A DNA stretch of 61,706 nucleotides, filler included. It is 5 parts of 5 records of this genome, joined end to end, with 100 filler letters (N's around TTAATTAATTAA, not from the genome) between each part and the next. Parts side by side here need not be neighbours in the genome. Positions count along the whole stretch, not along the records: positions 1 to 13,593 come from DRR723986_8366; 4 more parts are not named here. One strand, 5' to 3'. Below the pieces are notes generated by a model that saw nothing but the letters and a program-made list of their open reading frames with translations, ran no database searches and had not been told where the DNA came from. The position numbers and the translations under genes were made by a program. Positions 1-13,593 of this stretch are shown here, one piece after another; positions within the stretch are counted from its first letter, which is position 1, and each line of letters begins with the position of its first letter.

Positions 1-702
1 GTCCCAGAACCACCAGCCGCCCCAGCCAAGTTCGTAATAGGCCCAGTAGGATCCGAGCGCGATGCCGAAGGTCAGCGGCACAAAGGCGGCGAGCGACCAG
101 CGCCGGGCTTCCTTCGCCCACACCCGGTCTATACGCCCATCCATCATGCCCGCCGCAGCGAGCGCGAAGACGAAGGAGTATCCGACATAGCCGAGATACA
201 ACATCGGCGGATGGAAGGAGAGTGCCGGGTCCTGCAGAAGCGGGTTCAGCCCTGCCCCCTGAAAGGGTGCCGGGTCGAGGCGCAGATAGGGTGAGGACGC
301 AAACAGCAGATAGCCCATCGCCCCCGCCGTCAGGAACCCCTGTACGCCGAGCGCATGGGCCTCGAAACTCACACGTCCTGTCTTCATCAGCGCAGCCGCC
401 GCTGCGCCGAAAGCAAAGGTCACCAGGGCCCAGAGCGCCATGGAGCCCTCATGGTTCCCCCACGTGCCGGCAATCTTGTAGAGCATCGGTTTCAGCGTGT
501 GGGAGTTGTTCGCCACGAGCAGGAGCGAAAAGTCCGATACGGCAAAGGCATGCACCAGCGTGAGGAACGAAAACGCCATCAGACCAAAACCGGTCACGGC
601 GGACATCCCTGCCCACCGGCGATCCCCCTTCAGGCCGAAGATCGTCTGCGCCAGCGCGGCGCCGAGCGCCAGGAAGGCCGCCAAATGCCCGGCTTCGATC
701 AT
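1..702 (-). CDS. ccmF: Cytochrome c heme lyase CcmF/CycK, 5' part (runs off the window)
   Basis: Not in the ORF track. Manual translation from ATG 702 gives MIEAGHLAAFLALG...SDFS...NSH...YKIAGTWGNHEGS...ALGSYWAYYELGWGGWWFWD (WWD motif). ATGA overlap with the ccmE stop. Confidence 0.95.
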   Translation of the reverse strand, partial: MIEAGHLAAFLALGAALAQTIFGLKGDRRWAGMSAVTGFGLMAFSFLTLVHAFAVSDFSLLLVANNSHTLKPMLYKIAGTWGNHEGSMALWALVTFAFGAAAAALMKTGRVSFEAHALGVQGFLTAGAMGYLLFASSPYLRLDPAPFQGAGLNPLLQDPALSFHPPMLYLGYVGYSFVFALAAAGMMDGRIDRVWAKEARRWSLAAFVPLTFGIALGSYWAYYELGWGGWWFWD

Positions 703-1124
703 CCGCCGATTGCCTCGGGGCGCAGTTCGCGCGGTTGGTAATTCTCGTCATGCTTCGCCAGGATCTGGCGGGCGGTGAACGTCCCGTCGGGACTGAACTG
801 GCCGATGGCAACGACGCCCTGGCCTTCGCGGAACAGGTCCGGCGCGATACCGGTGAATGCGACCTTGATGTCAGCATCGCTGTTGTCCATCACGGTGAAC
901 ATCATGGTCGCGCCATCCGCAGAATAGGTTAGCGACCCCGGCTCGACCCAGCCGCCGACTTTCACCTCACGCCCCTCCTGGGGCAGGCCTTTCTCGGCCA
1001 GCGTCTGAGGTGTGTAGAACAGGTTGGCATTCTGGCGCAGGGCCATGAAGGCAAGCCCCGCCGCAGCCAACAGCAGGACGGCGGCGATGCCAAACGTGTA
1101 GAGTCGTCGAGTGCGTGCGCGCAT
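699..1124 (-). CDS. ccmE: Heme chaperone CcmE/CycJ
   Basis: N-terminal TM, PDLFREGQGVV, and LAKHDENY with the heme-binding His. Confidence 0.97.
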   Translation of the reverse strand: MRARTRRLYTFGIAAVLLLAAAGLAFMALRQNANLFYTPQTLAEKGLPQEGREVKVGGWVEPGSLTYSADGATMMFTVMDNSDADIKVAFTGIAPDLFREGQGVVAIGQFSPDGTFTARQILAKHDENYQPRELRPEAIGG

Positions 1125-1311
1125 GCCGGTCTTATAGAGCGACCCGCGCCAAATTGGGAGTGCGGCAGATGCATCCGGTGCCGGCGAGGTCCTGGCGCCC
1201 GAATGGGCAGGCTGGAAAGGCCTGAACCCAATAGAGACGTGGCTGTCTAATTGCGAGCTATGCGTTTATAGTTGGGACTATGACGCCTGCAGCATTTGAG
1301 ATCTTTTTCGG

Positions 1312-3384
1312 ATGATCGAACTGACGATCAACGGGCGGCTGGTCCAAATCGCCGAGGGCGCGACGTTGCTCGACGCTGCCAGTAAAGCTGGCATTCATAT
1401 CCCCACACTTTGCCATTATCCGGGCCTGCCGTCCCATTCGGTCTGCCGGATGTGCCTGGTCGAAGTTGACGGCGAGGCAAAGCCGCAGCCAGCCTGCACG
1501 ACTCTGGCGAAACAAGGCGACGTCGTCGAAACCTGTTCAGAAGCACTTCGGGCATTCCGTCGGAGCAATGGAGAGTGGCTGTTAGCCCGCCACCCGAACG
1601 ATTGCATGCGATGCGAGGTCAATGGGTCCTGCAAACTGCAGAGCCTTGTCGCCGAAAACCAGTGGGAAGAGCGCTGGGAGGAAATTCCCCCGGGATCTGC
1701 CGCACATCCTGAGCATCCATCGGCTGACCACACATCGCCCAGCATATGGCGGGACCTGTCCAAATGTATCGAATGCGGCCTGTGTGCCGAAGCCTGCGGA
1801 GAGGCCGGCCAGCAGCAATACGTGATCGGCTTTGCGGAACGCGGTGACGAACGCCTGCCCGTCACCGTCTTCGACGACCCATTGTCTGAAACCCAGTGCA
1901 TTTCCTGCGGTCAATGCACTCTGGTCTGTCCGGTCGGCGCCTTGATAGAGGCGCCGCACTGGCACGACGTTTTGCATACGCTCGACTCGCGCAGACGCAT
2001 CTCCGTCGTCCAGGTTGCACCAGCCACCCGTATCGCGATCAGCGAAGAGTTCGGCATGGCGCCCGGGACCGTCAGCACCGGCAGGCTGATCAACGCGCTG
2101 AGGCAGCTCGGGTTCGACTATGTCTTCGATACGAATTTTACAGCTGACCTGACCATCATGGAGGAAGGGACGGAGCTGCTGGCCCGTCTGGAGACGCAGA
2201 CCGACCTTCCGCTCTTCACATCATGCTGTCCGGGGTGGGTGAACTGGCTTGAGCTCAACCGGCCCGATCTTCTTCCGCATCTCAGCACGACGAAGTCCCC
2301 CCAGCAGATGCACGGCGCGATCGCAAAGCGGGGCCATTTCGCGCGATCGCTCGGACCGGAATTCGCCGAGGGAAAAACGGAGCCCTACGTTGTCAGCGTC
2401 ATGCCGTGTACGGCCAAAAAAGACGAGGCCTTGCGGCCGGGCATGTCCGGCGATGTGGATCATGTGATGACCACACGGGAACTCGCCCGGATGATCCGCT
2501 CTCGCGGCATTGGGTTTGGCGCCCTTTCCGAAGACGGCAGTTTTGACAGCCCGCTCGGCGAGAGCACAGGCGCAGCGCAGATCTTCGGCGCCTCCGGCGG
2601 TGTGATGGAGGCGATGGCGCGCACTGCAGCGCACCTCACAGGGCAGGAAGACCAGGTTCCGCTGGAGTGGCAGCAATTGCGCGACGTCCGTGAAGCCGTG
2701 AAGACAGCGACCATTCCCGGTATCGGAACGGTGGCTGTCTGCAACGGCATTGCCGCGGCTCAGCGCATGCTGGAGACAGAAGCATGGCGCACGGAATATG
2801 TGGCCATCGAGGTCATGGCCTGTTCGGGCGGATGTCTTGGCGGCGGCGGTGAACCGAAATCCATGGATCCGGATGTCCTGAAAAAACGCAGCAAGGCGAT
2901 CTACGACATCGATGCCAAAGCCCCGCGCAGGCGCTCCTATGAGAATCCTGACGTCCGGAAACTGTACGACACAGAACTTGGGGAGCCGAACTCGAAGGCC
3001 GCGCACGCCCTGCTGCACACCACCCACATCGCAAGGCGCTCAGACCGATCGCTGCTGGCGCGGTTTCTCGATTGCGTGGACCGGCGCGATGCCGAGGCCG
3101 CCGCAAGCCTGTTCCATCCGGACGGCGTCTGGTCCACCGCCTCGCCCTTCGGCGATATCCGGGGCGCAAACAACATAGCGGCGCTCATCCGCAACGACCT
3201 GCCACCCAGGAAAATCGGCCCTCATTTTGTGCGGCATCGTCTGGAGCCGCCTGCCGGGCCAGATGATCTCGTCGTCGTTACGCCTGATGGCCAGCGATGC
3301 CGGTTCACCATGGAAACATGTCCGGTAGATGCGGATGGACGATCCTCGGTCCGGATCAGAACCCTCGAACGCCACGCCCTCTAA
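1312..3384 (+). CDS. hydA: [FeFe]-hydrogenase, group A-like (2Fe-2S, His-ligated 4Fe-4S, 2x4Fe-4S, H-cluster, small-subunit domain) with a C-terminal SnoaL/NTF2-like domain
   Basis: IPTLC..CRMC..PAC; HPNDCMRCEVNGSC; CIECGLCAEAC and CISCGQCTLVCP; H-cluster motifs FTSCCPGW, MPCTAKKDE, EVMACSGGCLGGGG; SSU motif RRSYENPDVRKLY..LGEP..AHALLHT; about 110 extra C-terminal residues. Confidence 0.95.
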   Translation: MIELTINGRLVQIAEGATLLDAASKAGIHIPTLCHYPGLPSHSVCRMCLVEVDGEAKPQPACTTLAKQGDVVETCSEALRAFRRSNGEWLLARHPNDCMRCEVNGSCKLQSLVAENQWEERWEEIPPGSAAHPEHPSADHTSPSIWRDLSKCIECGLCAEACGEAGQQQYVIGFAERGDERLPVTVFDDPLSETQCISCGQCTLVCPVGALIEAPHWHDVLHTLDSRRRISVVQVAPATRIAISEEFGMAPGTVSTGRLINALRQLGFDYVFDTNFTADLTIMEEGTELLARLETQTDLPLFTSCCPGWVNWLELNRPDLLPHLSTTKSPQQMHGAIAKRGHFARSLGPEFAEGKTEPYVVSVMPCTAKKDEALRPGMSGDVDHVMTTRELARMIRSRGIGFGALSEDGSFDSPLGESTGAAQIFGASGGVMEAMARTAAHLTGQEDQVPLEWQQLRDVREAVKTATIPGIGTVAVCNGIAAAQRMLETEAWRTEYVAIEVMACSGGCLGGGGEPKSMDPDVLKKRSKAIYDIDAKAPRRRSYENPDVRKLYDTELGEPNSKAAHALLHTTHIARRSDRSLLARFLDCVDRRDAEAAASLFHPDGVWSTASPFGDIRGANNIAALIRNDLPPRKIGPHFVRHRLEPPAGPDDLVVVTPDGQRCRFTMETCPVDADGRSSVRIRTLERHAL

Positions 3385-3483
3385 AACAGGCTGGCGCCAA
3401 CGCTCCGAACCACTCCATCACAGCTCGCGTGGCACGCGAATTGCTACTGGTTTCCCTTTCCGCTTCGGTCTGGGAGCCCCGTA

Positions 3484-5247
3484 TTGCGCCAGCTTAGAAT
3501 CTTTGGCGATCTCACCGTCCAGGTAGGGATCATCCTGATCAGTGTGGCAGCCCTGTTGTCCCTGATGCGGGATGGATTTCACATCTACGTCCATGACAGC
3601 TTCGCCTGGTTGATCACCGCAAAGCAGGCCGCCCTCGAAGCCCTGCTGGACCAACCCGTCGTATCGGCAACAGTCGAACTCGCTGCTGCCATCCTCAGGC
3701 GTGTATTCGCACTTCTGGGCGTGGAGGTAAATTTCTCTCCAGATTCCCATTGGATCTATGTATTCATCCTGCTCGCCGTCGCGTTGGGCGGATACGCCCA
3801 CACGCTCAGGAACTTCAAAACCCAGCCTGCCGTCAGCGTATTTCGTTACGGTAACGCCATCATTTGCGCCTTCGTCGGCGGCTTGCTTGCAGGATCTGCC
3901 CCCTTGGCCCATCCGGGCATGTTTGCCTGGCCCATTGCATCGCTGCTCGCATTCATCGGGCTAAACGCAATCTGGTGGGCATCGTTCGGTCGCAAACCGG
4001 ACCAGCGGCAGGTGGCGGCACGCGCAGCCTTGCTGACCATCTGCGCAGCCATCCTGACCGCCCGGATCGCTTTCGAGCTGGAGCCGGAAGGCGGAGTGAT
4101 CCATCCGCACTCAAGTCCGGGACTGATCCTGCTCGCTTTGCTCGCAGCCGGGTTCGGCGGTTGGTTCATGCGATTTGGTCTAGGCGCTACGCGCGCCGAC
4201 GAAATGGGACAGCGTCTCGGAACGCAGGTTCTCGCCGTCTTTGGTGTCGCAGCCATGGTGATTGTCGCAAGTCAGGCGACATTCTGGATGGGACGCGCCA
4301 CGGATGGTACCAATGTCCCGTCCGCCGGAGCGGTGTTCCAGGATTGTGCGGACTGTCCAGACATGGTGGCGATCCAGGCTGGGCGGTTCCTGATGGGAAC
4401 GACTTTTGAGGAAGCCGAGCTGCTGAAATCCGCTGAGCTCTGGAAACCGGCGCGCCACACTCAGGAAATGCCTTCTGCTGAACGGGAAACCACCAGCTTT
4501 GCGTTGGCCCGCACCGAAGTCACCGTCGCTCAATTCAAAGCGTTCATGGACGCCACAGGCTACAAACCGGCAGGCTGGTGCTGGGGCCTGCGCGACGGCA
4601 GCCTGGATTTCTCCGCGGACGTGACCTGGGACGCCCCCGGCTTTGCTCAGGAACCCGACCATCCGGTCGTTTGTGTGAACTGGCTCGACGCGCAGGCCTA
4701 TGTGCGCTGGCTCAGCCTACGGACGGGCGAGACCTATCGGCTACCGACCGAAGCGGAGTGGGAATATGCCGCGCGGGCTGGCTCACGGTCGGTCCATGCC
4801 TTGAGCGAAAATGCGCAGGCGGACTGTTTGCTGAGAAACGCTGCAGATGTATCGGCCAAGCAGAACTTTCCGGATTGGAACACATTCAATTGCGACGATG
4901 GTGCTGCCTTCACGGCGCCGGTGGGGTCCTACGCTCCGAACGGATTTGGCCTTTTCGACATGACAGGCAATGTCTGGGAATGGGTGCAGGACTGCTATGG
5001 CCCCCTACGGACCGCAGACCTGGATGGCGACACGCAACAACTCGATTGCTCCAACCGGGTGATACGCGGTGGTTCCTGGAACTACGGACCGGGCGAAGTG
5101 CGCGAGGCGACCCGCGATGTTCACGCTCCGGCTACACGAGGCAGCGGCCTGGGATTTCGGGTCGCCCGGGAGTTGGCCTTGCCCTCCCCTGAAATTGCTT
5201 ATTCCGAAGGTGCGGGCCCCGGTCCGGGCGCAGCCTCTTCCCCCTGA
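3484..5247 (+). CDS. Multi-TM membrane protein with a C-terminal FGE-sulfatase (SUMF1/EgtB/PvdO) domain
   Basis: Hydrophobic N-terminal half, then FQDCADCPDMV, HPVVCVNW, YRLPTEAEWEYAARAG, NGFGLFDMTGNVWEW, RGGSW, GFRVAR. TTG start uncertain. Confidence 0.85.
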   Translation: MRQLRIFGDLTVQVGIILISVAALLSLMRDGFHIYVHDSFAWLITAKQAALEALLDQPVVSATVELAAAILRRVFALLGVEVNFSPDSHWIYVFILLAVALGGYAHTLRNFKTQPAVSVFRYGNAIICAFVGGLLAGSAPLAHPGMFAWPIASLLAFIGLNAIWWASFGRKPDQRQVAARAALLTICAAILTARIAFELEPEGGVIHPHSSPGLILLALLAAGFGGWFMRFGLGATRADEMGQRLGTQVLAVFGVAAMVIVASQATFWMGRATDGTNVPSAGAVFQDCADCPDMVAIQAGRFLMGTTFEEAELLKSAELWKPARHTQEMPSAERETTSFALARTEVTVAQFKAFMDATGYKPAGWCWGLRDGSLDFSADVTWDAPGFAQEPDHPVVCVNWLDAQAYVRWLSLRTGETYRLPTEAEWEYAARAGSRSVHALSENAQADCLLRNAADVSAKQNFPDWNTFNCDDGAAFTAPVGSYAPNGFGLFDMTGNVWEWVQDCYGPLRTADLDGDTQQLDCSNRVIRGGSWNYGPGEVREATRDVHAPATRGSGLGFRVARELALPSPEIAYSEGAGPGPGAASSP

Positions 5248-5816
5248 CCGATGGCTTCGATCATGCCGCGGAAGCGGTCCCGGCGAGGATCGCCTTCGGG
5301 AAGGTTATTGTAGATATACCGCATGGCCTGTTCGGCCTTGTCCTGCTCGCCTGCCTGCGCGGCGCCCATTGCGGCCCACATACCGGCGCGCACCTGCGTC
5401 TCGTCCAGTTCGTAAGCACGGCCATACAGCCTCGTTGCCTGCGAGCTAACGCCACCACCTGACAGCGCCACCAGCGTATCGGCTAGCGCCACCAGCGCCG
5501 GAACGAAATTCTCGTCACGCCGCAAGGCCGACTGGTAAGCGCGCGCTGCATCCTCCGGACGACCCTCTGCGCGCAGCATCTCGCCAATGAAGAAATGCGG
5601 CTGCGGGTCGTTCGGGCGCTGCTGCGTCGCAAGCTCGAGGCGCGACAGGGTTTCCGCAGGCGTCAATGTTTCCGGCGCCGTGGCGATCTTCTGGGCGAGG
5701 CCTTCCTGACGCTTGGCCATCGGTTCGTCGGGCATACCCGGCTTGCCCACCACCAGATAGCCTGCCACGGCCACAGCGAGGCAGAGACCGGCGACAGCAA
5801 TATTCAGGCGGTTCAT
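5199..5816 (-). CDS. ccmI: Cytochrome c biogenesis TPR protein, CcmI/CycH-like
   Basis: N-terminal TM followed by YLVVGKPGMPDEP and TPR helices; lies between the feuQ-like kinase and ccmE. Confidence 0.75.
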   Translation of the reverse strand: MNRLNIAVAGLCLAVAVAGYLVVGKPGMPDEPMAKRQEGLAQKIATAPETLTPAETLSRLELATQQRPNDPQPHFFIGEMLRAEGRPEDAARAYQSALRRDENFVPALVALADTLVALSGGGVSSQATRLYGRAYELDETQVRAGMWAAMGAAQAGEQDKAEQAMRYIYNNLPEGDPRRDRFRGMIEAIGQGEEAAPGPGPAPSE

Positions 5817-7240
5817 CGTTTCGGAAACCTCAGGCGTGCGCGCAGGCCCCCGGCCGGGGCCTCATCCAATTCAAGCACGCCCTTATGCAGCTCTGCCAGC
5901 TCTGTGACAATCGACAGACCCAGTCCGGTGCCGGGGGTTGTTTCATCAAGTCGCACCCCCCGCTTGAGCGCGCCTTCGCGTTCTTCCGCGGTCAGGCCCG
6001 GGCCGTCATCATCGACTTCGATCCGCAATTCGGTGGCATCATCGAGCACGCTGACCCGCACATCAGCCTTCGCCCATTTGCAGGCATTTTCCATGAGATT
6101 GCCGACCATCTCCTCAAGGTCCTGCTGTTCTCCGCGGAAGACGGCTGCCTCGCCGCCAAAGACAGTCACATCAATGCCCTTCGCGTCATAGAGCCGGTTC
6201 ATCAGCCGGGCAATGCCATCCAGAACGGGCCGCACTTCGGCCCGTGCGCCCAGCGCTTCAGCCCGCGCGGCCATGCGGGCGCGCTTCAGATAGTGCTCCA
6301 CATTGGTCTGCATGGAATCGACCTGGCGGCGCACGACATCATCCAGCTGCGTCTTGCCTGTCGCCTCGTTACGCAGGACCGCAATCGGTGTCTTCAGGGC
6401 GTGGGCAAGATTGCCGACATGGGTGCGGGCACGTTCGACAACCTGCCGGTTGTGGTCGACCAGCTTGTTCAGTTCCTCTGTCAGTGGCTGCACTTCAGAG
6501 GGATAATCGTCCGGCAGTTTCAGCCGCGTACCTTCCCGGATCTCCGCAATGTCATGGCCGAGCTTCACCAGCGGCCGCAATGAATAGCGGATGCCGGCAA
6601 CCATCGCGGCGAACACACTGCCGAACAGGACCACCATTGTGCCGATCAGCAAATTGCGGAACCGGGTCGCCGCGGCGTCGTTCTGTGCCCTGTCTGCGGC
6701 AGCGACGAGCACGAGCGGCGTCGCGCGGTTCTCTACAATTATGGCCTTGGCAGCGGCGAAGATGCGCTGGCCTGCCGGCCCCGGCCCGATGCCGAATTGC
6801 GTCGTGCCTGGCGTGGCGAGCGCCCGCTTCAACAGGCGCGGCGACATCGGCACGGGTTCGTCCCACAGGCTGCGAGAGCGCAGGTCGCCAACCGCGTCGC
6901 CGTCTTCATTCACGGCGACAATCGCCCAGTAACGTCCGGAATACTGGGTCTGGTAACGGGAATCTGTCGACAGGAAGACGTGATTGTCATCCGTCACCCG
7001 GCCGTCCGGCAGGAAAGCTCCCTCGCGTGTCATGTCGCGCGTCAGGGTAACCAGGGTCTGATCCAGATCGTCAGACAGAAGGGACAGCGTCTGTGCCCTG
7101 TAAAGCGCCGACAGAGCCAGCGCCCCGCCGATCAGCACGATCAGGCCCCAGACGGCGGCCGCCAGAATGATCCGCCGGGCCAGCGACAGGCGCGTCCAGC
7201 GGTCGAGGAATGTGACAGGTTTGGTGTCGGCGTCGCTCAT
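5813..7240 (-). CDS. Sensor histidine kinase (FeuQ/PhoQ-like)
   Basis: Two TMs, H-box LAHALKTP, N-box GNLMENACKW, DDDGPG, GTGLGL. Confidence 0.93.
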   Translation of the reverse strand: MSDADTKPVTFLDRWTRLSLARRIILAAAVWGLIVLIGGALALSALYRAQTLSLLSDDLDQTLVTLTRDMTREGAFLPDGRVTDDNHVFLSTDSRYQTQYSGRYWAIVAVNEDGDAVGDLRSRSLWDEPVPMSPRLLKRALATPGTTQFGIGPGPAGQRIFAAAKAIIVENRATPLVLVAAADRAQNDAAATRFRNLLIGTMVVLFGSVFAAMVAGIRYSLRPLVKLGHDIAEIREGTRLKLPDDYPSEVQPLTEELNKLVDHNRQVVERARTHVGNLAHALKTPIAVLRNEATGKTQLDDVVRRQVDSMQTNVEHYLKRARMAARAEALGARAEVRPVLDGIARLMNRLYDAKGIDVTVFGGEAAVFRGEQQDLEEMVGNLMENACKWAKADVRVSVLDDATELRIEVDDDGPGLTAEEREGALKRGVRLDETTPGTGLGLSIVTELAELHKGVLELDEAPAGGLRARLRFPKR

Positions 7241-7265
7241 ACCCGGCAATCAGCACGGGCCGGCA

Positions 7266-7949
7266 TCAGCCGGCCACGCGTGCTTCATTCTCCGGCACGA
7301 CCAGCCGGTAGCCAAGACCACGTTCGGTCTGGATCCGGTCCTGCCCGATCTTGCGGCGAAGACGGCCGATAAACACCTCGATCGTGTTCGAGTCGCGGTC
7401 GAAATCCTGATCATAGATGTGCTCGACCAATTCCGTACGCGGAACAACCCGGCCCTGATGGTGCATCAGGTAGGACAGGACGCGATATTCATGCGCGGTC
7501 AGCTTCACCGGCTCGCCATTGATCATGGCGCGCGCCGCGCGGGTGTCGACCATCAGCTTGCCAGCTTCCAGGGTGGCGGCGGAATGACCGGCCGCCCGGC
7601 GCAGCAGCGCCCGCAGGCGGGCCAGCAGCTCTTCGGTGATGAAGGGCTTGGTCAGGTAGTCGTCGGCCCCGGCATCGAAGCCGGCCACCTTCTCGCTCCA
7701 CGAATCGCGGGCGGTCAGGATCAGGACCGGGAAGGACTTGCCATCCGCGCGCCATTTCTTCAGCACGCTCACCCCGTCCATCTTGGGCAGGCCAAGGTCC
7801 AGGATCACCGCGTCATAGGGTTCGGTGTCACCCAGGAAGTGGCCATCCTCACCGTCTGCGGCGAGGTCGACCGCATAGCCTGACTGGCCCAGCACGTCGG
7901 CCAATTGGCGGCGCAGGTCAGCATCGTCTTCAACAACCAGGATACGCAT
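7266..7949 (-). CDS. OmpR-family response regulator (FeuP/PhoP-like)
   Basis: MRILVVEDD, LDLGLP, GADDYLTKPF, and a wHTH ending TERGLGY. Confidence 0.95.
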   Translation of the reverse strand: MRILVVEDDADLRRQLADVLGQSGYAVDLAADGEDGHFLGDTEPYDAVILDLGLPKMDGVSVLKKWRADGKSFPVLILTARDSWSEKVAGFDAGADDYLTKPFITEELLARLRALLRRAAGHSAATLEAGKLMVDTRAARAMINGEPVKLTAHEYRVLSYLMHHQGRVVPRTELVEHIYDQDFDRDSNTIEVFIGRLRRKIGQDRIQTERGLGYRLVVPENEARVAG

Positions 7950-7990
7950 GGTTCAGCTACTCCCTGAAATGGCTAGGGGCTAATGTTGGC

Positions 7991-8305
7991 TCAGGCACCG
8001 CGGCGGTCAAGGATCGCGCCCGTTTGCGCATCGACCACGAAATGCATCTTGCGGCCATCCTTGGTCATCCAGTCGATTTCGTATACCGCTTTGCCATTAC
8101 CCCGTTCATATAGGTCGGCGCTCAACTGGTAGCCGCCATATTGCCGCTTCAAATTGTTGAAAATCTGGCTCAGCGGCACGGTGCGCCCCTGATTGCGTGA
8201 ATCGCGCGCCTGTCCGGGCGAGAACTGGTTCATCCAGTCCTGCGCCGACGCGGCAGGTGCGACGACGAGGCCAAGAGCCAGGAAAAGGGCGGCAATCCGT
8301 TTCAT
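7991..8305 (-). CDS. Periplasmic PepSY-like protein
   Basis: Signal peptide; YEIDWMTKDGRKMHFVVDAQTGAIL is a PepSY pattern; typical first gene of such two-component operons. Confidence 0.8.
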   Translation of the reverse strand: MKRIAALFLALGLVVAPAASAQDWMNQFSPGQARDSRNQGRTVPLSQIFNNLKRQYGGYQLSADLYERGNGKAVYEIDWMTKDGRKMHFVVDAQTGAILDRRGA

Positions 8306-8312
8306 ACGCAGC

Positions 8313-8368
8313 GGTATAGGGGCAAAGCGCTGAATGTGAAGTGAACGATGGCGTTCAGTTTCGTTCAG
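8313..8368 (-). promoter_or_regulatory. Putative autoregulated promoter with PhoP-box-like direct repeats
   Basis: Minus strand has GTTCAC-N5-ATTCAG (8330-8346) upstream of a -10-like TATACC (8313-8318). An opposite-orientation GTTCAG-N4-GTTCAG lies at 8353-8368. Confidence 0.5.
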
Positions 8369-8428
8369 TGCCGGAGGGCTCGTCTGGTGGCATCTGGCGA
8401 TGAACCTTGTCAGGGCCCAGAGCAGGCG

Positions 8429-9307
8429 TCAGGACTTCTCCGCCCATTTGCGCAGGCTCTCGTCCTTCGGGTTCTCCAGGACGATCTCCAACCGGACATA
8501 CAGATCGCCGGGCGACGTGGTTTTCACGCCCTTCCCCTTCAGCCGCAACTGAGCGCCTGTGTTGGAGCCGGCCGGGACTTTCAGCGTCACATGGCCCGAA
8601 GGCGTCTTCACTTCCACGCTGCCGCCGAGAACGGCCTCCTTGAGGCCGATGGGCAGCTTCATGCGAAGGTCTTTGCCTTCCCGCTCCCAGATCTTCGACG
8701 GGCGAACCTCGATCTCAAGCAGTGCGTCGCCGGGCGGGCCGCCATAAGGCGATTGCTGGCCCTGGCTTTTCAGGCGCAGTGTCTGCCCGGTGTCGATCCC
8801 GGCAGGAATGTTGACGTCCAGCGCCCGGCCATCGGCCATGGTCATGCGGCGGCGCGCGCCGAGCACGGCATCCTCGAAGTCCACCTGCACACGGTAGCGG
8901 ACATCCCGGCCCTTCTGCGGGCCTGGGCCGCCACGACGCGACCGGCCACCGCCGAACATGCCGGAGAGGATGTCTTCGAACGGGTCGCCCTGCGCGCCTT
9001 CGAAGGGGCTCTGGCCGGACGTGCTTTGCCAACGGAACCCGCCAGCACCACCCGGATGGCCACCGCCAGCAAAGCCGGTGGGATTGCCGTCGCCGTCAAT
9101 CTCGCCGCGGTCGAATTTCGCTTTCTTTTCCTTGTCGCCCAGAATCTCATAGGCCGACGAGACGCGTTTGAACTCCTCGGCCTTTTTCGGGTCGTCCTTG
9201 TGCTGGTCCGGATGCAAGGCTTTCGCCTTTGCCCGGTAAGCCTTCTTAATCTCGGCCTCCGTCGCCGAGCGCGGAACGCCGAGCACGATGTAGGGATCGA
9301 TGGCCAA
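8429..9307 (-). CDS. DnaJ-class co-chaperone (class B, CbpA-like, no zinc finger)
   Basis: J domain DPY..LHPD, G/F-rich linker, DnaJ_C domain. Probable TTG start at 9307 after AAGGA. Confidence 0.9.
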   Translation of the reverse strand: MAIDPYIVLGVPRSATEAEIKKAYRAKAKALHPDQHKDDPKKAEEFKRVSSAYEILGDKEKKAKFDRGEIDGDGNPTGFAGGGHPGGAGGFRWQSTSGQSPFEGAQGDPFEDILSGMFGGGRSRRGGPGPQKGRDVRYRVQVDFEDAVLGARRRMTMADGRALDVNIPAGIDTGQTLRLKSQGQQSPYGGPPGDALLEIEVRPSKIWEREGKDLRMKLPIGLKEAVLGGSVEVKTPSGHVTLKVPAGSNTGAQLRLKGKGVKTTSPGDLYVRLEIVLENPKDESLRKWAEKS

Positions 9308-9760
9308 GTGAGTCGGATCCTTCTGGTATTTCATTTGCTGACATACAGTTAGGGTGTCCCGAGGGGGATTGGAACCCACTTGCCACTGTGGCCATCTGCG
9401 CCGTTTTAGCCACGCGCGCTGCGATCGCGCCCTCGTCCCGGCTGCCCCGGTTCAGGCCGCCCGGATCGGTCAGTGCCACCATGGGTGGAGCCGATTTCGA
9501 CTCATGCCTGTTTTTCCCGGGATCCCGTTCCACGCCATGCCGCCGCATCCGCCTCCATCGTTTGATGGCGTGAAGTCAAGATGCGGCCAAACCCCGGGGA
9601 TTGGGATTCGAATTATCCAATAATTACAAAGGAAAACATGCTTATGGCGGCGGGACAGGCGCTGCTATTTCCCACAGCTCTGCGACGTTCTGGCGTAGCC
9701 ATCAGGAGCCAAATCTGCTTTGTCTTTAGCTTCCGTTTTGAGGGGTCGAGGAGCTGAAGA

Positions 9761-10645
9761 ATGTCGGCGCGTGTGATTTCTATTGCCAATTCCAAGGGTG
9801 GCGTCGGCAAGACCACAACCACTGTCAGCCTGGCTGAAGCCTTTGCGGCTGAAGGCCGCCGCGTCCTGGTCGTCGACCTCGATACGCAGGCTAACGCCTC
9901 CCTGCTGGTCTTCGGGAATGAGGGCGACGAACACCTGTTCCAGGCCATTAATGACTACGCCACAATCTCCGACTGGCTGCTGGAGAATTTCGAGGCGAAC
10001 GAGCAGAAGCGGCTGGAAGAGTACATCGTCACCGATGCCTCCGACGTGACCGCGGGCGGCAAGCCGCTGCCGCTGGACCTGATCCCGTCGAGCCCGCGCC
10101 TGCGCAAAACCGAGAAAGAGCTGATCTATCACCTCACCGAGCAGGGCTATTCCATGGAAGCCCTGGAGAACCAGGTCGGCAGGCGCCTGCGCGACGATTT
10201 CAACCTGCTCAAGGCGAAGTATGACGTCATCCTGTGCGACTGCCCGCCTGGTATTTCCACGATGACGGAATCTGTCCTCGCCGCCAGCCACCTCGTGATC
10301 GTGCCGACCATTCCGGACTTCATGTCCACGCTTGGCCTCGACCTCTTCACCGGCGACGTGATGACCAATCTGCGCGAACGCGACGTGAAAAAGCTCCCCA
10401 TGGTGCTGGCGACCCGGTATGACAATTCTCAACACCAGCAGGTCGTGCTGAACGCGATGCGCGAAGCGGCAGCTGCCCAGGAAGCCGAGTTCACCATGTT
10501 CAAGACGGTCATCCCGATGAAGTCCGGCTTTGCCACCAACCCGATCGAGCTTGGCCCCGAGCCGACGATCGAGGCGAAATGGTCTGGCGGTGCGCTGCCG
10601 GTGATCAAGGACCTGCTGGCCGAAGTGAAGGCGGCGCTGGCATGA
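9761..10645 (+). CDS. ParA/Soj-family ATPase (orphan)
   Basis: Deviant Walker A KGGVGKTT, VDLDTQAN, DCPPG; SD GAGGAG. Confidence 0.93.
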   Translation: MSARVISIANSKGGVGKTTTTVSLAEAFAAEGRRVLVVDLDTQANASLLVFGNEGDEHLFQAINDYATISDWLLENFEANEQKRLEEYIVTDASDVTAGGKPLPLDLIPSSPRLRKTEKELIYHLTEQGYSMEALENQVGRRLRDDFNLLKAKYDVILCDCPPGISTMTESVLAASHLVIVPTIPDFMSTLGLDLFTGDVMTNLRERDVKKLPMVLATRYDNSQHQQVVLNAMREAAAAQEAEFTMFKTVIPMKSGFATNPIELGPEPTIEAKWSGGALPVIKDLLAEVKAALA

Positions 10646-11118
10646 GCGGCGACGCACACAAGGCCGGCGCCGAAGCGCTGACAGCCCTGCTGAACCAGGC
10701 CTTCAGCGCGCTGGGCGAAAAGGAATACGCCGCCGCCGCAGGCCTGCTGACCAAGAAGCTGATGATCTCCGCCGGGCAGACCATTGAGGTCATGCGCGCC
10801 TTGCGCGATGCCGTCGGCAAGGACATCTTCGAAGCCCAGCTCAAATCGCTGACGGCGCACCAGGCCCGCCTGCTCGCCCGCCGCCTCGACAAGACCGTCC
10901 CGGACATCGAAGTCTCCACCGCCGGCGCCGCCTGCGCCTGGATCCGCGACCTGATGGACGGCAAGACGCCGGTCACCGAGGCCCCCGCCGAAGAACCGGC
11001 TGTCGAAACACCCGCAGAAGCAGAAACCGAAGCCGAACCCCCGGCTGAACCGGAAGCGCCAAAGCCCGCTTCCTCCGGTTCCTACTTCGGCCGCAAGAGC
11101 TTCCGCACCGGGAACTAG
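10642..11118 (+). CDS. Hypothetical protein coupled to ParA
   Basis: ATGA overlap with the parA stop; GC3-rich codons; helical N-part and a Pro/Glu-rich tail. Confidence 0.75.
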   Translation: MSGDAHKAGAEALTALLNQAFSALGEKEYAAAAGLLTKKLMISAGQTIEVMRALRDAVGKDIFEAQLKSLTAHQARLLARRLDKTVPDIEVSTAGAACAWIRDLMDGKTPVTEAPAEEPAVETPAEAETEAEPPAEPEAPKPASSGSYFGRKSFRTGN

Positions 11119-11123
11119 GCGGC

Positions 11124-11189
11124 TCACAACTGGCGCACGCCCAGCGCGGCCTCGTCGAGCATCAGTGCCCAGACGGCCCAGACCAGTGC
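11124..11189 (-). pseudogene. Possible 3' remnant of a GTA/phage terminase large subunit gene
   Basis: Translates as ALVWAVWALMLDEAALGVRQL*, resembling the (SPDRxD)ALVWAxxxLML...VRxL C-terminus of RcGTA-like terminases. Short match. Confidence 0.4.
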
Positions 11190-11234
11190 GGAAGCCTGGT
11201 GCTGAACTGTGCCTGAAGGATCGAGGGCGCGAAT

Positions 11235-13040
11235 TCAGCTCATCTCCTGCACGCCCGCAATACACTGCGAGGGGCAAGGGTCAGAGGTCGGGTCCGTCAC
11301 CTCGCCGGTCTTCTCAATGGCCGATTTCGCACAATCATAGTCGAGATCCACGATGGCATCGAACTGATTGAGATAGACCTTGCCGGTCAGATCATCCAGG
11401 AAATGCGTGCGTTTCAGCCGGTCCATCACCGGTCCCTTCACTTCGCTGAGGTGCAGGGTGACGCCGGCATCCTTCAGGCGCCGGTTGATGGCTTCGAGGC
11501 TTTCCAGGCCGCTGACATCGATATGGTTCACCGCCGGACACATCAGGACAATGTGCTCGACGTCCGGCCGGTTCCCGAGGACACAGTAGACCGTATCCTC
11601 CAGGAAGCGGGCATTGGCAAAGTAGAGGCTTTCGTCAATCCGTATCGTGACGATGTGCTTCGGGATCACAACGGCATGCCGGTTCACATTGCGGAAATGG
11701 TGGGTGCCCGGCACCTGCCCCACAATCGCAAAGTGCGGCTTGGAGGTGACATAGAGGTGCAGGCCGATCGACACGATGATGCCGGTCGTCACGCCCAGCT
11801 CCACGCCGGCCAGCAGCGTCACGAGGATCGTGCCCAGCATGGCGGCAAAGTCCCGCTTCGAATAGCTGAGCGTGTGGACGAGTTTCTTGAGGTCAACGAG
11901 GCCCAGCACGGCGACGATCACCGTCGCGGCCAGAACGGCTTGCGGAAGGTTGTAGAGCAGCGGCGTCAGGAACAGTGCGGCAAGCGCGATGCCGACAGCG
12001 GTGAAGGCCCCGGCCGCCGGCGTCTCGGCGCCCGCGTCGAAGTTCACGGCGGAGCGGGCAAAGCCCCCGGTCACCGGATAGCCGCCGGAGAAACCTGCCC
12101 CGAGGCTGGCGGCGCCGAGCGCGATCAGTTCCTGGTCCGGGTCGATCCGCTGGCGGCGCTTGGCGGCCAGCGTCTGCGCCATGGAGACCGATTCAATAAA
12201 GCTGATCATCGCTATCAGCGCGGAGGAGCCAAGCAGCGAGCGCCAGAGGCCGGGGTCGAAATCCGGCACAGTCAGGCCCGGCAGGCCCTTCGGAATGTCG
12301 CCGACAATGCTCACGCCCTTGGCTTCCAGCCCGAAGGCCGTCACGGCCACACCGCCCAGCGCCACGGCCAGCACCGGGCCGGACCGGGCCAGCGTGCCCG
12401 CGATATGCTCCTTCAGGCCCAGTGCCAGCAACAAGGGCTTCAGGCCTTTCCTTGCCCAGAACAGGAAAGCCACCGCCGGGGCGCCGATGGAGACCGTGTA
12501 CCAGTTCACATCGACAAGGTGGCTGATGATGCTGGCCAGCGTCTCGATGATGTTGTGCCCGCTCGCCTGCACGCCCAGCAGGTATTTCAGCTGGCTGACG
12601 GCAATCAGGATGCCCGTCGCGGTGACAAAGCCGGAGACGACCGGATGGCTCAGGAAATTAGCAAGGAAGCCCAGCCGGAAGACGCCCATAACCACCAGCA
12701 TCAGGCCGGAGAGGATGGCCAGGATGATGGCGGCGGTCAGGTATTCCGGCGTGCCCTGCTCGGCCACCTTGCCCGCAGCGACGGCCGTCATCAGCGACAG
12801 GATCGCCACCGGCCCGACCGCCATCGTCCGGCTGGTGCCGAAAATGGCGTAGATCACCAGCGGCAGGATGGAGGCGTAGAGCCCCACCTGCGGCGGCAGC
12901 CCCGCCAGCATCGCATAAGCCAGCGATTGCGGGATCAGCATGACCGTCACGATCACCGCCGCCACCATGTCATTGGTGAACGTGCCGCCATTATAGGTAC
13001 GGCCCCATTGAAGAATGGGCAGGTGATCAGACAGTTTCAC
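11235..13040 (-). CDS. SulP-family sulfate/anion permease with STAS domain
   Basis: LIPQSLAYAMLAGLPPQVGLYAS, PVTGGFARSAVN, STAS RIDESLYFANA. Confidence 0.95.
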   Translation of the reverse strand: MKLSDHLPILQWGRTYNGGTFTNDMVAAVIVTVMLIPQSLAYAMLAGLPPQVGLYASILPLVIYAIFGTSRTMAVGPVAILSLMTAVAAGKVAEQGTPEYLTAAIILAILSGLMLVVMGVFRLGFLANFLSHPVVSGFVTATGILIAVSQLKYLLGVQASGHNIIETLASIISHLVDVNWYTVSIGAPAVAFLFWARKGLKPLLLALGLKEHIAGTLARSGPVLAVALGGVAVTAFGLEAKGVSIVGDIPKGLPGLTVPDFDPGLWRSLLGSSALIAMISFIESVSMAQTLAAKRRQRIDPDQELIALGAASLGAGFSGGYPVTGGFARSAVNFDAGAETPAAGAFTAVGIALAALFLTPLLYNLPQAVLAATVIVAVLGLVDLKKLVHTLSYSKRDFAAMLGTILVTLLAGVELGVTTGIIVSIGLHLYVTSKPHFAIVGQVPGTHHFRNVNRHAVVIPKHIVTIRIDESLYFANARFLEDTVYCVLGNRPDVEHIVLMCPAVNHIDVSGLESLEAINRRLKDAGVTLHLSEVKGPVMDRLKRTHFLDDLTGKVYLNQFDAIVDLDYDCAKSAIEKTGEVTDPTSDPCPSQCIAGVQEMS

Positions 13041-13067
13041 GCGTTCAGCCCCCGGCTTTTCCCGGCA

Positions 13068-13592
13068 CTATAGAGCGTTCAGCGGAATTTTCAGATAGCT
13101 GGTGCCGTTATCGTCCGGCTCCGGCATCTGGCCGGCGCGCATGTTGATCTGGATCGAGGGCAGGATCAGCCGCGGCATGTCCAGCGTCGCGTCCCGCGCT
13201 TCGCGCATGGCGACGAACTCGTCCTCGGTGACCCCGTCATGGACGTGGACATTATTTGCCCGCTCCTCGGCGACCGTCGTCTCCCATTTGTACTCGTCCC
13301 GGCCGGGCGCCTTGTAGTCATGGCACATGAACAGGCGGGTTTCAGGCGGCAGGCTCAGCACTTTCCTGATCGAACGGTAGAGCGTCCTGGCGTCTCCGCC
13401 GGGAAAGTCCGCCCGGGCGGTGCCATAGTCCGGCATGAACATGGTATCGCCCACAAAAGCCGCGTCGCCGACAACATAGGTCATGCAGGCCGGCGTGTGG
13501 CCGGGCGTGTGCATGGTATGGGCCTCGATGCTCCCGATACGGAACGTATCGTCGTCCACCATCAGCTTGTCGAACTGGCTGCCGTCGCGCTG
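13068..13592 (-). CDS. MBL-fold persulfide dioxygenase (ETHE1/Sdo/Blh-like), 5'-truncated
   Basis: RDGSQFD, HTPGHTPAC, GDTMFMPDYGTARADFPGG, MCHDY, LKIPLN. Confidence 0.9.
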   Translation of the reverse strand, partial: QRDGSQFDKLMVDDDTFRIGSIEAHTMHTPGHTPACMTYVVGDAAFVGDTMFMPDYGTARADFPGGDARTLYRSIRKVLSLPPETRLFMCHDYKAPGRDEYKWETTVAEERANNVHVHDGVTEDEFVAMREARDATLDMPRLILPSIQINMRAGQMPEPDDNGTSYLKIPLNAL

Positions 13593-13593
13593 G

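Follow-up and report, generated by a model that had tools for sequence, protein, structure and literature searches.

The gene at positions 1312 to 3384 (plus strand) of the DNA analysed here, a stretch of 61,706 nucleotides that we call the window and whose first part (1 to 13,593) comes from record DRR723986_8366, encodes an M3-type group-A [FeFe]-hydrogenase that ends in an additional NTF2-like domain. Judged from sequence comparison, this fusion is the hallmark of a tight clade of solitary, horizontally mobile [FeFe]-hydrogenases. Enzymes of this class catalyse H2 turnover faster than any other catalyst; they normally occur in anaerobes only and require three dedicated maturases. The open reading frame (ORF) comprises 690 codons and a stop, without an internal stop. 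Its modules, all on the plus strand, run from an N-terminal [2Fe-2S] ferredoxin-like domain (1312-1536, residues 1-75; Pfam Fer2_4, expect value E = 4.4e-18) through a NuoG-type His/Cys [4Fe-4S] domain (1558-1662, residues 83-117; Pfam NADH-G_4Fe-4S_3, E = 8.7e-11), two ferredoxin-type [4Fe-4S] motifs (1744-1944, residues 145-211; Pfam Fer4/Fer4_7) and the catalytic H-cluster domain, or H-domain (2002-2847, residues 231-512; Pfam Fe_hyd_lg_C, E = 1.2e-80), to the small-subunit-like (SSU) domain (2872-3036, residues 521-575; Pfam Fe_hyd_SSU, E = 6.2e-19), which is the usual C-terminus of such enzymes. By Pfam coordinates, three codons (3037-3045, residues 576-578) separate the SSU match from the SnoaL_4 match that follows, and the NTF2-like (SnoaL_2/SnoaL_4-type) domain of about 112 residues, delimited by Pfam, a structural model and structure matches, fills the remainder of the frame (3046-3381, residues 579-690). 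A preliminary description, made from the letters alone, had the frame continue past the string AHALLHT, as it indeed does: AHALLHT corresponds to residues 564-570, the SSU domain ends at residue 575, and the closest solved hydrogenase chain (8a6t_A, 571 amino acids (aa)) ends opposite residue 577, whose codon begins at nucleotide 3040. The string LLARFLDCVDRRDAEAAASLFHPDGVWSTASPFGDIRGANNIAALI, beginning with LLARFLDCVDRR and ending with NNIAALI, corresponds to residues 581-626.

The tail is a genuine NTF2-like (SnoaL_2/SnoaL_4-type) domain, and we regard this fold assignment as firm. Within the whole protein, it passed the cut-offs of the Pfam families SnoaL_4 (residues 579-642, E = 3.3e-8, 34.0 bits against a cut-off of 24) and SnoaL_2 (residues 583-657, E = 1.4e-7, 32.5 bits against 27), with DUF4440 just below its own (24.9 against 25.2 bits). 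Presented alone (P0002, residues 569-690), it scored 35.8, 33.5 and 26.1 bits against SnoaL_4, SnoaL_2 and DUF4440, respectively. Only the N-terminal 60-70% of each SnoaL profile was covered, and the SnoaL polyketide cyclase model PF07366 was not reached (13.2 bits against a cut-off of 28.4). Weak NCBIfam matches, all under their cut-offs, were to PRK08241 (E = 0.0013) and TIGR02960 (E = 0.14), both sigma-70 factors with a SnoaL_2-type extension, and to SgcJ/EcaC (E = 0.0012). An AlphaFold2 (AF2) model computed from 41 aligned tails reached a mean predicted local distance difference test (pLDDT) of 85.6 and a predicted template modelling (pTM) score of 0.81. In tail numbering, to which 568 is added to obtain full-protein numbering, its helices (3-23, 26-31 and 51-61) and strands (33-40, 47-49, 86-88, 94-106 and 109-121) form the alpha+beta cone fold, with three helices on a curved sheet. 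Foldseek retrieved 148 matches from the Protein Data Bank (PDB) at E <= 0.001, headed by ketosteroid isomerases (E ~1.6e-5) at modest template modelling (TM) scores of 0.44-0.59. VIA-align, which does not depend on Foldseek, was run against 48,161 chains and gave 142 matches at Z >= 8, the best being 4i4k_B (Z 12.9, root-mean-square deviation 2.4 Å, 110 of 122 residues). The 50 rows listed from these 142 were all NTF2-like folds or designs on that fold (Z 10-12.9) and included SgcE6, LinA, ketosteroid isomerases, NTF2, the CaMKII hub, scytalone dehydratase and a chain annotated as 'putative aromatic ring hydroxylase' (Z 12.5). Identity to the solved structural neighbours was 5-25%. When the 41-tail profile was compared with PDB sequences, only its SSU part gave significant matches, ketosteroid isomerase following at E 0.088 or weaker, and the ESM Atlas returned only generic NTF2/SnoaL clusters at 0.84-0.85, under the meaningful level. 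The fold matches point to no particular functional subfamily. The preliminary description, which had proposed a SnoaL/NTF2-like domain at residues ~578-690 on the strength of a short pattern and suggested SnoaL_2 and AlphaFold as checks, is thus corroborated by the Pfam scores, the confident model and the structural neighbours alike.

Compared to the NTF2-like superfamily, represented by SgcE6 (4i4k), LinA (3a76), ketosteroid isomerases, NTF2 and the CaMKII hub, the tail shares the fold and the Pfam SnoaL cut-offs passed, but differs in having invariant motifs of its own, in being fused, in having no clear free-standing relatives and in not being a PF07366 cyclase. Across 41 tails, F17, L18, D19, D22, R23, R24, D25, L32, W39, T41, G46, I54, L62, R73 and H74 are invariant, C20, H34 and C95 are among the near-invariant positions, and the family-specific motifs read FLDCVDRRD, WSTASPFGDI, LPPRK.GP, RHR and TP.G.RC.F. 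A metal site formed by C20, H34, H74 and C95 was considered and rejected: the four residues are conserved in the bacterial members but are lost in varying combinations in divergent ones. In the full-length model, a helix spanning residues 562-568 is followed by ~9 residues and then by the first tail helix (578-590). Complex prediction of the H-domain plus SSU (215-577) with the tail (578-690) gave a score of 0.00 in both of two control-free runs, a value that speaks neither for nor against contact between the two parts.

The fusion is found far beyond the window. Searching one genome per species, we found the tail encoded in 114 species genomes of Alpha-, Beta-, Gamma- and Zetaproteobacteria, and the best 80 of these 114 loci were fetched for locus and genome comparisons. 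Among proteins of 379-1208 aa, 141 matched the tail at E <= 1e-3, nearly all of them 671-725 aa long and equipped with hydrogenase domains, with Hyphomonas, Thiomicrorhabdus, Thioclava, Nitrosomonas and Sulfuriferula among the source names. Proteins of 67-214 aa yielded 40 tail matches, all resembling C-terminal pieces of the tailed hydrogenase family: 24 of them include Fe_hyd_SSU, and the others open with the domain or shortly ahead of it, most of these lying on contigs of ~1-3 kb. When 1.84 billion cluster representatives were searched exhaustively with the tail by phmmer, no more than 52 matched at E <= 1e-3, and of the 14 that we read, 10 had preceding hydrogenase sequence, two were garbled-looking fragments (P0180 and P0202) and two were short and lacked it. 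As far as these searches reach, the tail has essentially no relatives outside the tailed hydrogenase. Two short proteins, P0176 (133 aa) and P0197 (128 aa), start just before the NTF2-like domain and contain no hydrogenase SSU residues. No member of the tailed clade was found on plasmids, where all 366 matching records were below 60% identity and none covered the tail. In 70 of the 80 loci, which derive from independent assemblies, an ORF of the same length carries the same tail, the other 10 having shorter ORFs. Metatranscriptome libraries from two studies furthermore contain contigs that share 90-99% identity with the window and cross the junction between SSU and tail without indels (X15 record 6, covering 1928-3384; X14 record 2, 2005-3164; X16 records 11-13, 2916-3235), whereas RNA run X17 contained only short parts of the gene and left the junction uncovered. 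Because such libraries can contain DNA, these contigs are at most a weak sign of transcription. Two shorter tailed forms, P0108 (592 aa, from a Sulfuriferula metagenome-assembled genome (MAG), locus L048) and P0103 (592 aa), have no precomputed Fer2_4 or NADH-G_4Fe-4S_3 match, which could mean that their architecture is truncated or that the start was called wrongly.

Purifying selection acts on the tail, where it is roughly two-fold more relaxed than on the core. For 50 gap-free coding sequences, using the 236 pairs with a core synonymous divergence (dS) of 0.05-1.5, the median pairwise ratio of nonsynonymous to synonymous divergence (dN/dS) was 0.106 over codons 1-577 (core) and 0.199 over codons 578-690 (tail). 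The preliminary description had reckoned with a lost stop or an assembly error as the source of the extension and had suggested looking for the same architecture across genomes. The hydrogenase plus SnoaL-type tail in 114 species genomes, the 141 protein matches and the purifying selection establish a true fusion. The nearest relative, locus L001 (Hyphomonas sp. CY54-11-8; genome G001), shows a different pattern: between window 3046-3381 and L001 10031-10366, the tail has dN 0.058 and dS 0.011, compared to 0.021 and 0.239 for the core, with no indel. Protein identity between the two loci is 99% for CcmE, CcmF and CcmI, 94.6% for the hydrogenase (HydA) and 88.5% for an FGE-sulfatase-domain protein encoded next to it. 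It suggests that the locus has a mosaic history and/or that, in one lineage, selection on the tail has been relaxed or positive. A compensated frameshift behind the tail replacements was ruled out, as the DNA aligns gap-free.

The hydrogenase core has retained the features of a catalytic enzyme. The group-A call rests on TIGR02512 (FeFe_hydrog_A; 427.8 bits against a cut-off of 405.95), and the best NCBIfam model is FeFe_hydrog_A6 (NF040763), which matches residues 2-575 with 646.7 bits, under its cut-off of 765. The three H-cluster motifs of such enzymes, L1 (TSCCPxW), L2 (MPCxxKxxE) and L3 (ExMxCxxGCxxGGGxP), which include the four Cys ligands, are represented by TSCCPGW (303-309), MPCTAKKDE (364-372) and EVMACSGGCLGGGGEP (500-515), and all of them align with 8a6t_A. 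In a family alignment of 85 full-length members, 71-98% identical to the window protein and with a mean column identity of 77%, L1 to L3 are invariant or at least 90% conserved. The same alignment shows as invariant the [2Fe-2S] ligands C34, C45, C48 and C62, the His/Cys [4Fe-4S] ligands H94, C98, C101 and C107, and both further [4Fe-4S] ligand sets (C152, C155, C158 and C162; C196, C199, C202 and C206). In the H-cluster region, C305, C366, C504, C508 and K369 are invariant and C306 is at least 90% conserved. The catalytic roles of these H-cluster residues, such as that of C305, the Cys next to the cluster ligand, in proton relay, are presumed from CpI.

Two solved hydrogenase types are close to this core. 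HydA1 of the electron-bifurcating or NADH-dependent HydABC hydrogenases (8a6t_A and 7q4v_A; PGAP 'NADH-dependent [FeFe] hydrogenase, group A6') shares the M3 domain order and every cluster motif, and 8a6t_A aligns at E = 1.7e-141 (query 1-577, chain 3-569). The three A6 loci examined, however, have NuoE/NuoF-like neighbours, whereas the window gene has an added NTF2-like domain, stays under the NF040763 cut-off and belongs to a group whose hosts lack HydE, HydF and HydG (HydEFG). The monomeric CpI-type M3 enzymes (4xdc_A, 1c4a_A; 'Iron hydrogenase 1') are similar in standing alone and in combining four accessory clusters with the H-domain, and align to query 4-571 at E = 3.8e-104; unlike the window protein, CpI ends after the SSU-like segment. 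CpI comes from an anaerobe that has the maturases.

The tailed genes are solitary. All-against-all clustering of the ORFs from the 80 loci and the first 25 kb of the window revealed no conserved neighbour: every cluster present in more than nine loci overlaps the hydrogenase gene itself, and the non-overlapping clusters reach nine loci at best. Those shared by 4-9 loci belong to generic paralogue families, among them ABC ATPase, P-type ATPase, PAS-GGDEF, SDR and AMP-binding proteins. Using the NuoE-like and NuoF-like neighbours of a Parabacteroides (P. distasonis) A6 hydrogenase as tblastn queries, we found no match in the 80 loci or the whole 61.7-kb window, whereas such genes flank all three A6 enzymes examined, which were the closest tail-less relatives found (40-43% identity). 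GltD-like proteins partner some [FeFe]-hydrogenases, and a GltD-like gene (Fer4_20 plus Pyr_redox_2, 469 aa) lies upstream on the same strand, at distances from 226 to 4183 bases, in L007, L017, L030 and L047; these loci belong to three Thiomicrorhabdus and one Gallionellaceae MAG, and the arrangement is not conserved across the clade. The upstream regions offered no clear regulatory signature either. An FNR/FixK-type box (TTGAY-N4-RTCAA, at most one mismatch) is absent from the 200 bases upstream of the window gene. Allowing two mismatches, FNR-type boxes occur in 22 of 70 upstream regions as compared to 18% of control windows, and a stricter FixK/FNR pattern in 7 of 70 as compared to 2.6%. 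CRP, Fur and NsrR patterns were not enriched in the 70 regions. FixK/FNR-type boxes are located about 75 bases before the start codon in L003, L021, L040 and L071, and one is also present in L008, these loci being mostly alphaproteobacterial. Taken as a whole, the box enrichment is too weak to claim anaerobic regulation.

The hosts of the tailed genes also lack the dedicated maturases. We surveyed the 80 tailed-gene host genomes, including G001 with its 95%-identical copy of the window gene, with curated cut-offs and 14 control genomes, two of which scored over the cut-off in each maturase search and served as positive controls. HydG was found in none of the 80 genomes (0 of 5, 0 of 30 and 0 of 45), a single radical-SAM match reaching 19.8 bits. 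HydE was likewise found in none (0 of 5 and 0 of 75), with four matches of 42-49 bits against a cut-off of 254.6. HydF was found in none, 0 of 5 genomes having more than GTPase-domain matches (at most 95.9 bits against 325.55) and 0 of 75 a match at E <= 1e-40. The BATS domain, common to BioB, ThiH, HydE and HydG, occurs in at most one gene per genome in all five hosts inspected for it. The set includes the complete Oceanicaulis alexandrii chromosome as well as isolate assemblies of Thiomicrorhabdus, Thioclava, Jannaschia, Lutimaribacter, Alloyangia, Tropicimonas and Rhodoferax.

In having a HydA without HydE, HydF or HydG, the clade resembles other maturase-less [FeFe]-hydrogenases, namely the Rhodospirillum rubrum-type alphaproteobacterial, most archaeal, Giardia and Entamoeba enzymes. 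HydA genes in genomes without HydE/F/G are discussed in the accessible text of PMC4967309 and PMC11216029, and in the latter, Greening et al. (2024) describe most archaeal genomes with [FeFe]-hydrogenases as lacking HydEFG and propose an alternative maturation pathway. According to the accessible part of Hansen & Perner (PMC4744846), three Thiomicrospira species carrying such genes showed no H2 consumption under the conditions used; T. chilensis is among our tailed loci (L030). The available portions of these three papers (PMC4967309, PMC11216029 and PMC4744846) make no mention of an NTF2-like domain. More generally, a full-text literature search, with supplementary tables outside its reach, yielded no publication that describes a hydrogenase fused to an NTF2/SnoaL domain, in agreement with the preliminary description, whose author knew of none. 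Pfam SnoaL matches are, however, already precomputed for many members in the protein collection, so that the fusion is visible in databases and, as far as searched, undiscussed in the literature.

A quick maximum-likelihood tree (77 rows, LG+G4), in which the tail columns were included as a caveat to be kept in mind and three tail-less A6 enzymes served as outgroup, placed all 70 tailed sequences from bacteria in a single clade (SH-aLRT 99), with four eukaryote-like ones (P0215, P0196, P0214 and P0206) branching just outside it. P0215 is a EukProt transcript entry from the choanoflagellate Acanthoeca spectabilis, 755 aa long, with the same architecture and an N-terminal extension of ~40 residues. 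The others likewise combine hydrogenase and NTF2-like domains (P0196 and P0214 with 766 and 767 aa, P0206 with 785 aa). Further eukaryote-like fragments are P0171, P0179, P0184, P0185, P0191 and P0195, and some relatives have low-complexity inserts. Full-length identity to the window protein is 52-54% for the eukaryote-like sequences, less for P0206, and 40-43% for the A6 enzymes. Within the bacterial clade, the window falls into an alphaproteobacterial branch of 21 rows, beside L001, and its protein is 95% identical to the G001 copy over residues 1-690. Beta-, Gamma- and Zetaproteobacteria are intermingled in the second branch with a few Alphaproteobacteria and one myxobacterial MAG; even when only its well-supported branches are counted, the class label must change at least 4-5 times within it. 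Presence is patchy also at close range, with 6 of 121 sampled genomes of G001's family carrying the gene.

The surroundings of the window gene fit this picture. In the window, L001 and L002, the hydrogenase gene is placed between ccmI and ccmE. The FGE-sulfatase-domain gene is also there in the window and in L001, whereas L002 has the hydrogenase without it. Five related genomes without the hydrogenase were compared, and in two of them ccmI, ccmE and ccmF follow one another directly. On this comparison of gene order, the hydrogenase and FGE genes look like an insertion into a cytochrome c maturation cluster; L004 and L006, both from Hyphomonas, have no ccm gene within their ~20-kb loci. Patchy presence, mixed class labels and the ccm insertion together mark the hydrogenase gene as an accessory one that spreads horizontally on its own. 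The gene order between window positions 699 and 5816 is ccmE (699-1124, minus strand), the hydrogenase gene, the gene for the FGE-sulfatase-domain membrane protein (3484-5247, plus strand; 587 aa, N-terminal half hydrophobic) and a CcmI/CycH-like TPR gene (5199-5816, minus strand). According to the ORF map, the intergenic region between the divergent ccmE and hydrogenase genes (1125-1311) is the presumed promoter region. Adjoining the ccmI-like gene, a histidine kinase (478 aa) and an OmpR-type response regulator (227 aa) are encoded at 5813-7949 (minus strand); this pair is common to the window, L001 and L002 and absent from the other hydrogenase loci.

What the preliminary description had seen right was the identity of the domain and the reality of a conserved fusion; the solitary state of the gene and the HydE/F/G-less hosts had escaped it, and both change the likely meaning of the fusion. 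The four roles that it had put forward for the tail (ligand or quinone pocket, carrier of a cofactor precursor, O2 cap, dimerisation) are candidates at most. Considering that none of the 20 cluster ligands has been lost and that the H-cluster pocket and the residues of the proton relay persist, the protein is probably still a hydrogen-cycling enzyme, or a redox enzyme depending on the hydrogen pocket, that would be fed by a soluble carrier. If it is active, the absence of HydEFG implies that its cofactor would have to be made without them. For the tail, we tentatively favour, at a probability of roughly 40%, a non-catalytic role in structure or assembly. Joined through a very short linker beside the SSU-like C-terminus, the tail would pack in cis on the catalytic domain and/or pair with a second copy and so bring two enzymes together. 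Such packing or pairing would give a partner-less enzyme a defined, stable assembly, and the tail could thereby also control access to the H-domain. We lean toward this role because the tail hardly exists outside the tailed hydrogenase, starts ~9 residues after the last SSU helix and is found in a lineage without partner subunits, and because attached NTF2-like modules are usually scaffolds or cis-regulators, as exemplified by the beta subunits of Rieske dioxygenases, the CaMKII hub and the ECF41 extensions. In ECF41-type sigma factors, the C-terminal SnoaL_2 extension is a cis regulator, and the NTF2-like beta subunits of Rieske dioxygenases are an assembly scaffold of an Fe-S enzyme. Both provide a precedent for a non-catalytic NTF2-like module on a larger protein; the tail has no detectable specific sequence relationship to either, and they serve as analogies of mechanism only.

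Several observations weigh against a structural or assembly role. Among the tail residues that never vary, polar and charged ones predominate (D19, D22, R23, R24, D25, W39, T41, R73 and H74), which would be just as fitting for a pocket that binds a ligand or catalyses a reaction. The tail changes at about double the rate of the core, and between the window and L001 it has accumulated ~13 replacements against ~1 silent change, a ratio that a rigid interface would not lead one to expect. P0176 and P0197 might represent tails that stand alone or are split off. As for the setting, many of the 80 host genomes are incomplete MAGs, and the lifestyle of the hosts, which we take to be mostly aerobes and microaerophiles (sulfur-, iron- and ammonia-oxidisers and marine heterotrophs), is that of the named genera and is taken from the titles of the host records.

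These points leave room for other functions. One that we consider less probable is that the tail is a sensor of a small molecule or of the redox state and thereby controls the hydrogenase in cis: a metabolite, a quinone or a gas-derived ligand would bind in the pocket of the tail and switch electron transfer or access to the H-cluster, by analogy with the ECF41 SnoaL_2 extensions. The NTF2-like fold has a pocket, many of the top structural neighbours are ligand binders or enzymes, the invariant polar residues cluster in helix 1 and two loops, the weak NCBIfam matches of the tail lead to sigma-70 factors with such an extension and to SgcJ/EcaC, and some form of built-in control is plausible for a solitary enzyme of aerobic hosts. 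The sigma-factor parallel, however, builds on sub-threshold matches, and the tail has no close free-standing ligand-binding relative. The missing maturases bear on two further explanations, both of them unlikely. The protein might have ceased to be a hydrogenase, its scaffold lacking the diiron subcluster and working as a multi-FeS electron-transfer or sensor protein according to a Nar1-like logic, with the NTF2-like domain as substrate-binding or catalytic site. Maturases found in none of the 80 hosts, the lack of H2 uptake in Thiomicrospira carriers reported in the accessible text of PMC4744846 and the many enzymes among NTF2-like domains would agree with this, but the strict invariance of the diiron-pocket residues and of the proton-relay Cys C305 in 85 members is hard to explain if the pocket is empty, and the SnoaL cyclase model PF07366 is unmatched (13.2 against 28.4 bits). 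Slightly harder still to credit is a tail that participates in a HydEFG-independent route to the H-cluster, as a built-in chaperone or lid that would receive, deliver or shield the diiron subcluster or its precursor, including from O2. It would account for 80 of 80 tailed hosts without HydE, HydF or HydG above the cut-offs despite an invariant H-cluster pocket and ligands, and an alternative pathway is proposed for maturase-less archaeal genomes in the accessible part of PMC11216029. The association is purely correlative, though, the maturase survey having covered tailed hosts only; the other maturase-less lineages of PMC11216029 are not known to need such a tail; and the three Thiomicrospira carriers of PMC4744846, as far as its available text goes, consumed no H2. 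That the tail is an artefact, a lost stop, frameshift or mis-assembly having joined two genes, can be given practically no weight in view of the same tail in 70 of 80 independent loci, the gap-free alignment with the nearest relative, the purifying selection, the confident fold and the junction-bridging contigs.

The family as such is already known from databases and from hydrogenase surveys, where it figures as 'group A'. As far as searched, what is new is the NTF2-like tail as hallmark of the clade, the solitary state of the gene and the absence of HydEFG from 80 of 80 hosts despite an invariant scaffold. The tail is the one obvious structural novelty of a clade that keeps the catalytic residues while doing without NuoE/F partners and maturases. 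If the enzyme is active, it would imply a maturase-independent route to the cofactor and possibly a new design for coping with O2; if it is inactive as a hydrogenase, a hydrogenase scaffold would have been put to another use. Should the tail, improbable as this is, act as a chaperone or lid that delivers, retains or shields the diiron subcluster, the alternative maturation route long suspected would come within reach in bacteria that can be cultured and manipulated genetically, such as Hyphomonas, Thioclava, Oceanicaulis and Thiomicrorhabdus.

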